DNA of 64,000 nt. Origin: an uncultured Alphaproteobacteria bacterium. Lineage in GTDB: Bacteria; Pseudomonadota; Alphaproteobacteria; HIMB59; GCA-002718135. The stretch spans positions 1,581 to 65,580 of the forward strand of contig CACNKX010000007.1 in assembly GCA_902621165.1 (NCBI GenBank), given 5' to 3'. Below are positions 8,904-18,618 of this stretch, in pieces (position 1 is the stretch's first letter; each line of letters starts with the position of its first letter). The translations under genes were made by a program, and so were the position numbers. The notes under the pieces were generated by a model. It searched no databases and had not been told where the DNA came from. It saw only the letters and a list, made by a program, of their open reading frames with translations.

Positions 8904-10334
8904 CTACACGTCGTAGTATAATTTAAACTCGTGTGGATGAGGTCTAATATTAATAGGGTCAACCTCACTCTCTTTTTTATAGCTAATATAAGTTTCAATT
9001 ACATCTTTGGTGAATACGTCACCCTCTAATAAAAATTCATGATCTTTCTCAAGAGCTTCAAGAGATTCAGCTAAAGATCCAGGCGTAGATTGAATTTTAG
9101 ACAAAACTTCATCGCTAGCAGCATAGAGATTTATATCTGTTGGATCACCAGGATTAATTTTATTTTTAATTCCATCTAATCCTGCCATTAACATTGCTGA
9201 GAATGCTAAGTATGGATTTGCACTTGGATCTGGACATCTAAATTCCATTCTTTTTGCTTTAGGGCTTTGAGAATAAGCAGGAATTCTAACAGATGCAGTT
9301 CTATTTCTTTGAGAGTAAACGATGTTTACCGGAGCCTCAAAGCCTGGTACCAATCTTTTATAAGAGTTAGTAGTTGGAGCACAAAAAGCTAATAGAGCAG
9401 GTGCATGTTTAAGAATACCTCCAATATAGTTTAGAGCTAAATCACTTAGGTTAGCATAGTTACCTTCTTTATACATTAATGTGTCACCGTCTTTCCAAAC
9501 ACTTTGATGCACGTGCATTCCTGAACCATTATCTTCAAATAAAGGTTTAGGCATAAATGTAGCAGTCATTCCATGTTGTCTGGCAACATTTTTTACAACA
9601 TACTTATATTTCATCATATCATCGGCCATCTTTAACAGTGGTGAAAATTCTAAATCAATTTCACACTGTCCACCTGTTGCAACTTCATGGTGATGTGCTT
9701 CAACAGTAAGACCAATGTCTTGCATTGTCATTACCATTTCAGTTCTTACATCTTGAAGTGTATCAACTGGTGGTAAAGGAAAATAACCTTCTTTATGCCT
9801 AGGTTTATGTCCTAAGTTTGGATTTTCATCAGCGCCACTATTCCAAGTACCCTCGACAGAATCAACTTCATGAAATGCAAAGTTTGATCCAGAATCAAAC
9901 TGAACATTATTAAATACAAAAAATTCTGCTTCTGGTCCGAAAAATGCTGTATCGCCAATACCAGATGATTTCAAATATGCCTCAGCTTTTTTGGCAATAT
10001 TTCTTGGGTCACGACTATAATCAACCAAAGTTACAGGATCCTTAATGTTACAATGTAATGCTAGAGTTTTTTCTGAAAAAAATGGATCAATGTATGCAGT
10101 CGTTGCATCTGGCAAAACAATCATATCACTGTCTTGAATTTCTTGGAAACCTCTTACTGAAGATCCATCAAAACCAAGTCCATCAGAAAATATATCTTCG
10201 TCTAAAAATTTAATTGGTATTGTAAAATGTTGAGTTGTTCCTGGTATATCAGTAAAGCGCATATCAACCATTTTAATGTCCATATCTTTAATTTCAGACA
10301 TTAAATCTTTTGGAGTCGAGCTTTTTAATTTCAT
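8904..10334 (-). CDS. glnA: Glutamine synthetase type I (GSI-beta)
   Basis: [56 protein letters not shown]; AAGGAG Shine-Dalgarno upstream. Confidence 0.97.
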
Positions 10335-10351
10335 ATCTATCTCCTTACTTC

Positions 10352-10381
10352 AACAAAAGGGTATGCTATCCAGCGTTACCC
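10352..10381 (-). terminator. Candidate attenuator hairpin in the glnA leader (riboswitch expression platform)
   Basis: Minus strand GGGTA-AC-GCT-GGAT-AGC-A-TACCC followed by TTTTGTT, between aptamer 2 and the glnA SD. Confidence 0.55.
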
Positions 10382-10421
10382 GGTTAAATCATGCTCTAGT
10401 TATGAAATCTGCTTTTGATGC

Positions 10422-10475
10422 GCGTTCCTTCAGCTTTTGGCTTACTTCCGACCTATAATAATAGGTTGAACGATT
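10422..10475 (-). ncRNA. Glutamine-I riboswitch aptamer (glnA RNA motif), copy 2 (proximal)
   Basis: AATCGTTCA-ACCTAT-TATT-ATAGGT-CGGAAGTA-AGC-CAAAA-GCT-GAAGGAACGC: P1 CGTTC/GAACG, P2, GGAAGTA/GAA E-loop, P3. Confidence 0.9.
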
Positions 10476-10489
10476 TATAACTTTTGCAT

Positions 10490-10540
10490 GCGTTCCTTCG
10501 GCACAATGCCTACTTCCGACTCTAAAAGAGTTGAACGATT
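10490..10540 (-). ncRNA. Glutamine-I riboswitch aptamer (glnA RNA motif), copy 1 (distal)
   Basis: AATCGTTCA-ACTCT-TTT-AGAGT-CGGAAGTA-GGCA-TTG-TGCC-GAAGGAACGC; same core as copy 2 with compensatory stem changes. Confidence 0.9.
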
Positions 10541-10580
10541 GTAGTTTAATTACTAGGTTTTATATAAAAGTAAAGAAAAA

Positions 10581-10922
10581 TTAGACAGCATCACTGTCTT
10601 TTTCACCAGTCCTTATTCTAATTACCTGCTCAATATTCGATACAAAAATCTTACCATCTCCGATTTTTCCTGAATAAGCGCTAGTTTTTATTGATTCAAT
10701 AACATCATTTACTTGACTGTCATCGACGATAACTTCAAGTTTCATTTTTGCTAAAAATTCATCATCATACCCATCATTAGGATCAATTCCACCAGTTGAT
10801 CCTCTTTGTCTACCGAAACCTTTTACATCTACTAATGTCATTCCGGATATTCCAAGTTCATGTAAAGCTTCTTTAACTTGAGAAAGTTTAAATGGTTTAA
10901 TGATTGCTTCTATTTTTTTCAT
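10581..10922 (-). CDS. glnB: Nitrogen regulatory protein P-II with atypical T-loop
   Basis: MKKIEAIIKPFKL, GFGRQ, SGKIGDGKIF, RIRTGE; lies upstream of glnA. Confidence 0.9.
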   Translation of the reverse strand: MKKIEAIIKPFKLSQVKEALHELGISGMTLVDVKGFGRQRGSTGGIDPNDGYDDEFLAKMKLEVIVDDSQVNDVIESIKTSAYSGKIGDGKIFVSNIEQVIRIRTGEKDSDAV

Positions 10923-12128: not shown

Positions 12129-12206
12129 GGCGAACGTAGCTCAGTTGGTTAGAGCGCAGGCTTGTGGTGCCTGATGCCGTGGGTTCGAATCCCATCGTTC
12201 GCCCCA
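12129..12206 (+). tRNA. tRNA-His(GTG) with encoded G-1 and C73
   Basis: G-GCGAACG...CGTTCGC-C-CCA; anticodon arm CAGGC-TT-GTG-GT-GCCTG. Confidence 0.95.
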
Positions 12207-12272: not shown

Positions 12273-12357
12273 GGGCCGGTGGTGGAATTGGTAGACACGC
12301 TAGATTTAGGTTCTAGTGCCGCGAGGTGTGAAGGTTCAAGTCCTTTCCGGCCTACCA
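12273..12357 (+). tRNA. tRNA-Leu(TAG)
   Basis: GGGCCGG/CCGGCCT-A-CCA; CTAGA-TT-TAG-GT-TCTAG; long variable arm; usual position upstream of tig. Confidence 0.95.
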
Positions 12358-18462: not shown

Positions 18463-18538
18463 GGGTGTTTAGCTCAGTTGGTAGAGCATCTCGTTTACAC
18501 CGAGAGGGTCGGGAGTTCAAGTCTCTCAACACCCACCA
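18463..18538 (+). tRNA. tRNA-Val(TAC)
   Basis: GGGTGTT/AACACCC-A-CCA; anticodon loop TT-TAC-AC. Confidence 0.96.
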
Positions 18539-18541
18539 TGC

Positions 18542-18618
18542 GCGGGAGTAGTTCAGCTGGTTAGAACGCTGCCCTGTCACGGCAGAGGCCGCGGGTTCGA
18601 ATCCCGTCTCTCGCGCCA
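18542..18618 (+). tRNA. tRNA-Asp(GTC)
   Basis: GCGGGAG/CTCTCGC-G-CCA; CTGCC-CT-GTC-AC-GGCAG. Confidence 0.96.

Follow-up and report, generated by a model that had tools for sequence, protein, structure and literature searches.

Tandem glutamine-I riboswitch aptamers in the glnA leader of an alphaproteobacterial family, with a probable helix between conserved linker and tail and a proposed OFF switch

The glnA locus and its leader

The window, by which we mean the whole stretch of 64,000 nucleotides that was analysed (about 28% GC), comes from a small marine alphaproteobacterium whose assembly has 1.42 Mb in 20 contigs and is 83% complete. On its minus strand, a gene for glutamine synthetase (GS) of type I is preceded by a leader with two predicted aptamers and, further upstream, by a gene for a P-II protein. 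The features are given below in the order in which they would be transcribed.

10581..10922, minus strand: P-II (glnB-like) gene, 113 aa (Pfam PF00543, E 7e-33), the upstream neighbour of the aptamer doublet
10599-10583, minus strand: terminator-like hairpin at the end of the P-II gene (terminator scan)
10547..10574, minus strand: weak promoter-like region (TTTACT, 16 nt, TAATTA), recognized by eye and conserved in close relatives
10540, minus strand: RNA-contig end and possible transcript 5' end (contigs of two studies end here)
10487..10539, minus strand: predicted glutamine-I aptamer 1 (RF01739, 64.3 bits, E 6.1e-12; P1 CGUUC/GAACG, P2 and P3; covariation)
10477..10490, minus strand: linker, 5' strand of the putative helix H (CAUGC at 10490-10486, an AAA loop, AGUUAU at 10482-10477)
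10419..10474, minus strand: predicted glutamine-I aptamer 2 (RF01739, 65.2 bits, E 3.5e-12; covariation)
10389..10413, minus strand: conserved tail AGCAGAUUUCAUAACUAGAGCAUGA, 3' strand of the putative helix H (AUAACU at 10403-10398 and GCAUG at 10394-10390)
10409-10397, minus strand: 5' half of the tail, with complementarity to the start region of glnA
10352..10381, minus strand: lineage-variable hairpin (GGGUA..GCU/AGC..UACCC at 10381-10359), then UUUUGUU
10327..10346, minus strand: glnA translation start region (SD AAGGAG at 10346-10341, AUG at 10334-10332)
10339-10327, minus strand: UAG.UAUGAAAUU in the glnA start region, which pairs with the tail in folds
8904..10334, minus strand: glnA, type I glutamine synthetase, 476 aa (Pfam Gln-synt_C, E 2e-139, and Gln-synt_N)

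The T-loop of the P-II protein (GSTGGIDPNDGY) is unusual: it exceeds the cyanobacterial GQTERYRGSEY by one residue and keeps its tyrosine, and the closest solved structures of this protein are cyanobacterial P-II proteins (E 1e-35). Besides the aptamers, the only Rfam matches in the window are five tRNA genes on the plus strand (77-149, 12130-12203, 12273-12354, 18463-18535, and 18542-18615). Two of these tRNAs lie on the strand opposite to the P-II gene, some 1.2 kb upstream of it, with a 385-aa ORF between.

Two glutamine-I aptamers in series

A preliminary description of this DNA had placed two tandem copies of the glutamine-I (glnA) motif at 10422-10540 and expected two minus-strand matches to the covariance model. 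This is what the search of the whole window with Rfam cmscan returned: two matches on the minus strand, at 64.3 and 65.2 bits, both full-length (model positions 1-53 of 53) and almost twice the gathering score of 35 bits. The coordinates and the motifs shared by the copies were also correct, since the minus strand between 10540 and 10419 consists of two copies of AAUCGUUCA..CGGAAGUA..GAAGGAACGC. Their spacing had been put at 14 nt and must be revised to 12 nt between the ends of the Rfam matches, or 18 nt from one P1 helix to the next. The doublet lies in the 5' leader on the same strand as glnA, whose start is 85 nt downstream.

Each copy has the three-stem junction of the class with the joining strands CGGAAGUA and GAAGGAACG, columns that are invariant in 51 relatives. 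The model alignment bears out the earlier claim that P2 and P3 differ between the copies and still pair: P2 reads ACUCU/AGAGU in one and ACCUA/UAGGU in the other, and P3 reads GGC/GCC and AGC/GCU. Among 51 related doublets, 99.4% of the cells of the aptamer stems are paired, versus 23-36% in slid controls, and 14 of the 31 aptamer pairs show two-sided changes, all of them within P2 or P3. The covariation score was equalled by none of 500 shuffles. In both copies a C stands directly 3' of P1 (GAACG-C; C10490 and C10422) and is a candidate for a long-range G-C pair. Judged by its sequence and covariation, the element almost certainly consists of canonical tandem glutamine-I riboswitch aptamers, and we predict that they bind glutamine.

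The stretch with this element is present in 14 metatranscriptome runs from at least ten studies. In the four runs examined, RNA contigs span aptamer 1, the leader hairpin, and the glnA start (e.g., 10102-10540). Contigs ending at 10540 were found in two studies (10102-10540 and 10279-10540), and the summed depth of RNA contigs drops more than 10-fold upstream of this position (four runs). The promoter-like region at 10547-10574 is absent from the listing of the consensus promoter scan and serves as a hint only. The metatranscriptome evidence consists of contigs that may contain DNA, and hence a transcript start just before aptamer 1, near 10540, is only weakly hinted; each contig carries a single depth figure, so that comparing the depth of leader and coding region is uninformative. 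One loose contig end at 10540 belongs to the linker of another organism, of the kind described below as type B.

Host range and the missing protein sensors

A search with GlnA returned 80 loci, 60 of them at 74-100% identity and 20 at 63-67%. Two aptamers precede the gene, at about -204 and -139 from the glnA start, in 59 of the 60 close loci; the sixtieth, which shows no doublet, has just 111 nt of upstream sequence. None of the 20 distant glnA loci (Hyphomicrobiales, Bradyrhizobium, and others) has the aptamers. The titles among the close loci include "uncultured Alphaproteobacteria bacterium," "Pelagibacteraceae bacterium," "MarineAlpha5," and "HIMB59-LRMED-201." The alphaproteobacterial host proposed in the preliminary description holds, as the single-cell genomes with an identical or near-identical GlnA and leader carry the first of these titles.

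The aptamer was found in 77 of the 79 genomes of the window's family (f1) and in none of the 71 genomes of the sister family of the same order (f2, represented by one genus). A scan of 150 other families of the class, each represented by one genome, gave one match, a single aptamer before a CP_ATPgrasp_2 homolog, and a sample of 150 genomes from the phylum gave no RF01739 match. The order of the window has exactly two families, one of which includes a genome with glnB, a glnK-like gene, and glnD. This agrees with the GTDB order HIMB59, which comprises f_HIMB59 and f_GCA002718135 according to PMC10734472, and with the gene content that PMC3870248 reports for HIMB59. We infer that the order of the window is most likely HIMB59/AEGEAN-169.

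The two families also differ in their protein sensors. The GlnD domain (PF08335) was detected in 0 of 13 f1 genomes that are 56-83% complete and in 0 of 5 f1 genomes from three genera that are at least 91% complete; it was detected in all eight f2 genomes. The GlnE domain (PF03710) was likewise detected in none of these 13 and 5 f1 genomes and in 7 of 8 f2 genomes. Hence, the family with the RNA sensor is the one without both classical glutamine-sensing enzymes, and the distributions of the riboswitch and of GlnD/GlnE are mirror images of each other in the sister families. P-II is present in one copy in f1 (9 of 13 genomes, adjoining glnA) and mostly in two in f2. As a natural example, the mirror-image distribution in these families is a clean one, with an RNA sensor occupying the position that a protein sensor cascade has in the relatives. 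The pattern parallels that of cyanobacteria, which also lack GlnD according to Klähn et al. (2018).

A search of five genomes from both families for the sigma-54 DNA-binding domain gave no match. The f1 genomes have an ORF of 444-462 aa with a sigma-54-activator AAA+ domain (E ~1e-20; C5:9803-10264 in the window's genome), which may be NtrX-like.

A small glutamine regulon

The window's genome has six RF01739 matches, which form three doublets: that of glnA and two more on contig C3 (of the same assembly), each preceding one of two paralogs of the ammonium transporter gene amtB. A 128-aa ORF without a Pfam match lies between both amtB paralogs on this contig (L007:6173-6559, minus strand). Among the congeners, 23 of 24 genomes have two to eight matches, always paired. 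The examined loci hold doublets in 97 of 97 occurrences (82 of them unique) and no single aptamer. In the congener genomes with eight matches, the fourth doublet precedes a gene for a CP_ATPgrasp_2 protein (E 6e-149); a search of the window's own assembly, which is 83% complete, did not reveal this gene. Since the same doublet stands before glnA, before both amtB genes and, in congeners, before the CP-ATP-grasp gene, the doublets mark a small glutamine regulon of three to four operons, as read from sequence. The CP_ATPgrasp_2 gene (L088-L099 and L105-L106; e.g., L091:1745-3055) is preceded by an upstream ORF of 17-20 codons that overlaps its start.

A probable helix between the conserved linker and tail

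The conservation of the leaders extends beyond the aptamers. In an alignment of 58 unique glnA leaders, the linker CAUGCAAAAGUUAUAAAU is invariant, and so is a block after aptamer 2, AGCAGA(AC)UUUCAUAACUAGAGCAUGA. Downstream of this block comes a hairpin that differs between lineages and always pairs, and then the SD and the AUG. The linker motif CAUGC-A(2-4)-GUUAU and the tail UUUCCAUAGCUAAGCAUG are kept in all four gene classes with small class-specific differences. In every doublet the linker (18 nt) and the tail (about 25 nt) hardly vary.

The linker and the tail are complementary. They are predicted to form a helix, which we call H, of 5 and 6 bp (CAUGC/GCAUG and AGUUAU/AUARCU) separated by an A-rich internal loop and enclosing aptamer 2. 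The first base of this helix would be C10490, the base directly 3' of P1 of aptamer 1. Among 77 unique units, 9 of the 11 pairs of H are invariant, one alternates between U-A and U-G (17 units), and 5-6 units have breaks in the two inner pairs. Compensatory double changes do not occur in these 77 units, in which neither strand varies otherwise. The outer five pairs are predicted by RNAalifold, and the whole of H appears in the minimum free energy (MFE) and centroid folds of both amtB leaders. Its duplex energies of -10.9 and -11.4 kcal/mol were matched by 1 and 4 of 2000 shuffled tails. The stability of the whole-leader fold of the window resembles that of shuffles (z = 0.05). From complementarity, conservation, and energy, and not from covariation, we consider that H is probably real. 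Its strands could also be held invariant by something else, e.g., the binding of a protein or an sRNA, or tertiary contacts.

Other readings of these conserved segments were rejected. The linker of the glnA leaders contains a possible leader peptide (ATG CAA AAG TTA TAA), which we discard because its frame is lost in the amtB and CP-ATP-grasp leaders. A kink-turn in H does not agree with its internal loop, which is A-rich and 3x3, 2x2, or 1x2, with no 3-nt bulge and G.A pairs recognizable by eye. RNAalifold also proposed a pairing of the core of aptamer 2 with the tail (GGAA/UUUC), which has just 4 bp and would destroy P1.

A candidate OFF switch and its alternatives

The structural model of this class offers a way in which the aptamers could act on H. 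According to the account that Klähn et al. (2018) give of Ren et al., the C after P1 enters a long-range G-C pair when glutamine binds, and the short helix adjoining P1 melts. We propose that in the window both aptamers act on one shared expression platform. At low glutamine, H would form, the start region would be open, and GS and Amt would be made. Once glutamine is bound, C10490 would be drawn into the long-range G-C pair, H would melt, and aptamer 2 would likewise melt a small hairpin beside its own P1. The freed tail could then pair with the start codon or the SD region and block translation. The net result would be an OFF switch, in which one additional layer inverts the ON design of cyanobacteria. 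We give this explanation as a whole (shared platform, helix H, and OFF read-out) a probability of roughly 0.5. That the logic is OFF by some route seems probable to us, mainly on physiological grounds.

The read-out at the start codon was explored by folding. In the MFE and centroid folds of the window's leader, GAUUUCAUA.CUA of the tail pairs with UAG.UAUGAAAUU across the glnA start codon. This pairing and H are mutually exclusive because they use the same tail bases. We modelled two states in which both P1 helices were enforced, and either H was enforced or the linker was blocked. When the linker was blocked, the modelled probability that the AUG is unpaired fell from 0.87 to 0.00 in the window, and from 1.00 to 0.00 and from 0.69 to 0.00 in two other leaders, making three glnA lineages; there was no change in AUG accessibility in the fourth modelled glnA leader (L057). 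The accessibility of the SD or the AUG also dropped in four amtB leaders, giving a total of 7 of 8 glnA and amtB leaders, and that of the main start was unchanged in both CP-ATP-grasp leaders.

Several controls bear on the specificity of this pairing. Among 1331 crude start regions taken from the genome, 17 reach the tail/start energy of the window. The start codon is the best downstream partner of the tail in 14 of 15 glnA representatives, and the best partners are inconsistent in the leaders of amtB and of the CP-ATP-grasp gene. Compared with the mean of shuffled tails (100 shuffles each), the real tail gives lower accessibility in 18 of 19 leaders, which are related and not independent, with shuffle fractions of 0.00-0.34, mostly 0.02-0.3, and one of 0.93. 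Yet any AUG can pair with the CAU in the tail, and the tail/start pairing is therefore weak evidence. In the amtB-type leaders the energies of -6.4 and -7.1 were reached by 367 and 251 of the 1331 background start regions; they are not distinctive, and we dropped SD sequestration in these leaders as a significant signal, keeping it as a weak possibility. Sequestration of the start region by the tail is, on these models, a possible read-out to which we would give somewhat less than even odds.

If the two sensors cooperate, the leader could be a composite riboswitch in which aptamer 1 attacks H through its C and aptamer 2 attacks it from inside. In the fullest version of this idea, a cooperative OFF regulon of such RNAs would have replaced the lost GlnD and GlnE in the AEGEAN-169 family (order HIMB59) for GS, both Amt, and the CP-ATP-grasp operon. 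We put this forward as a tentative scenario, rather less likely than not. If true, it would mean that an RNA regulon took over direct glutamine sensing after the loss of GlnD and GlnE.

How the two aptamers share the work could be different. The doublet may be pseudo-cooperative, i.e., made of two complete riboswitches in series, each with its own platform, the linker for one and the tail for the other. Such a reading follows the survey of Sherlock et al. (2022), which files glutamine-I under multiple expression platforms and classes 157 doublets and 4 triplets as pseudo-cooperative. However, the 18-nt linker holds no terminator, no SD, and no start codon in a conserved frame that could provide aptamer 1 with a platform of its own. 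Moreover, the complement of the linker lies past aptamer 2, in the tail, which points to one shared platform. The anatomy of the leader would fit the glycine-like arrangement of two aptamers on a single platform, H being supported by conservation and energy and not by covariation. We consider two independent switches unlikely.

The sign of the response could also be the reverse of the one we favor. Glutamine would then stabilize P1 and H, keep the start open, and switch glnA and amtB ON, as in gifB. The only member of the class tested in vivo is indeed an ON switch (Klähn et al. 2018), genes behind the motif are reported by Weinberg et al. (2010) to decrease when nitrogen is depleted, and the single aptamer before the CP-ATP-grasp homolog of another family has a hairpin of the ON type. 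Against this, it would be physiologically perverse to turn on GS and ammonium transporters at high glutamine, and in the published structural model binding removes the very C that starts H. The extra layer, which is missing in the ON-type doublets of phages described below, is most simply taken for an inverter. Hence, we regard ON logic as improbable and retain the OFF switch with a shared platform.

The hairpin at 10381-10359 followed by UUUUGUU could be an aptamer-dependent intrinsic terminator, and control would then be by transcription attenuation. A hairpin with a U-run is found in the window and in several lineages (e.g., L061 and L103). Yet lineages L047, L057, and L060 and the amtB leaders lack the U-run, the terminator scan does not list the site, and RNA contigs read through the hairpin. 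It is present in both modelled states, and therefore nothing competes with it. Attenuation is accordingly a doubtful option in our view, and decidedly so. Finally, a chance match or a functionless, decaying relic can be practically dismissed, given E-values around 1e-12, an element kept with compensatory changes in 77 of the 79 genomes of the family, and its presence in metatranscriptomes.

Relation to known glutamine riboswitches

The aptamer class, the doublet arrangement, and the association with these genes are already known. Weinberg et al. (2010) place glnA RNAs upstream of genes for P-II, GS, GOGAT, and ammonium transporters in cyanobacteria and marine metagenomes, some of them in tandem. 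The idea that a doublet sharpens the response is also an existing one (discussed in Weinberg et al. 2010 and Sherlock et al. 2022). The preliminary description overrated the novelty as regards tandem copies and their marine association with glnA, amt, and P-II genes, which are in print; what stands is the host, since Klähn et al. (2018) find the class in no genomes of RefSeq 80 other than those of cyanobacteria and state that, for metagenomic copies linked to glnA, the host and the effect of glutamine are unknown. RF01739 is also mentioned in SAR86 MAGs, and in pelagimyophages and Melnitz (Buchholz 2022).

We add the assignment of a host, a regulon of three to four operons that mirrors the loss of GlnD and GlnE, and a conserved composite architecture that suggests inverted (OFF) logic. 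The host left open by Klähn et al. (2018) for the glnA-linked copies is supplied by an abundant, streamlined alphaproteobacterial family, and the conserved linker-tail helix with its candidate OFF mechanism gives a testable design. We found no publication that ties the class to HIMB59/AEGEAN-169 or describes the linker-tail helix, which Ames & Breaker (2011), Ren et al. (2015), or supplements may contain; the words riboswitch and glutamine are absent from the main AEGEAN-169/HIMB59 genome papers.

A close known parallel is the type 1 riboswitch of gifB in Synechocystis (Klähn et al. 2018). It agrees with the window in the consensus of the aptamer, in its three stems, and in the C 3' of P1, and in both a regulated helix is proposed to begin at this C. 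Both hosts also lack GlnD. The window has a doublet where gifB has a single aptamer, and its helix at the C would pair with a distant tail around the second aptamer, whereas that of gifB pairs with the SD. The targets differ as well, being GS and Amt themselves in the window and an inactivating factor in gifB. The former switch is likely OFF and belongs to an alphaproteobacterium, the latter is ON and cyanobacterial.

The tandems of marine metagenomes resemble the window in that doublets precede genes for glutamine synthetase, ammonium transporters, and P-II (listed in Weinberg et al. 2010 and Sherlock et al. 2022), and the published sets probably contain the same sequences. They differ in how they are presented: no host is named for them in Klähn et al. 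(2018), and Sherlock et al. (2022) file them as separate riboswitches in series.

Doublets of other designs exist. A search for any doublet in IMG/VR gave 94 stretches; 74 doublets were resolved, and 4 of 80 loci were not. These phage-type doublets share with the window two RF01739 aptamers in series (six of the loci were confirmed with Rfam), and their linkers have 8-11 nt, with one outlier of 25 nt (L157). Directly after aptamer 2, the 74 doublets have a hairpin that begins with the C beside P1 and sequesters the SD. This hairpin covaries (CACCU/GGGUG, CAUCU/AGAUG, CAAUCU/AGAUUG, CACUU/GAGUG, and CAUUUUC/GAGAAUG). An SD-covering hairpin at the C after P1 corresponds to the design proposed by Klähn et al. 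(2018) for the ON switch of gifB, and it supports the view that in the window, too, a regulated helix begins at this base. None of the 74 has the linker CAUGC..GUUAU or its tail, and their targets are small phage ORFs (MTKYQ.., MTMWTRYCR..), unlike those of the window. A freshwater-2 RNA (RF02980) lies about 220 nt downstream of the doublet in L118. In the other alphaproteobacterial family, a hairpin CAUC..GAUG of the single aptamer lies over the start codon of the CP_ATPgrasp_2 homolog (L117:56-1462), and the tail of this aptamer, CAUC..UCUCUU, is complementary to the SD and the start.

The tandem glycine riboswitch, whose aptamer fold is unrelated to that of the window, provides another point of comparison. 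Its linker forms a kink-turn with the leader. In the window the linker would pair with the tail instead, around an internal loop (AAA/AGA) that lacks the kink-turn signature.

A scan of metagenomes that excluded the window's linker revealed further arrays, which we call type B: 32 doublets, 11 triplets, and 2 arrays truncated by the end of their contig, counted in 45 parsed arrays after leaving out the 35 of 80 loci (L212-L291) that fall outside a stricter aptamer pattern. Like the window, they have a long conserved linker and a mini-hairpin after the last aptamer, and they lie upstream of a GS-like gene. In most variants the linker (CAGGA) is complementary to the tail (UCCUG), again as in the window; one sub-variant lacks this complementarity. 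Unlike the window, type B has unrelated linker and tail sequences, and its linker forms a covarying hairpin of its own (CGUUA/UAACG versus CGUUU/AAACG). The tail of type B contains the mini-hairpin GUUAAAC/GUUUAAC and AUCCUGCAG, and the downstream GS-like ORF has a Gln-synt_N domain. The locus L157 (4780-5100) is of type B, with a GS-like ORF of only 146 aa followed by phage-like ORFs.
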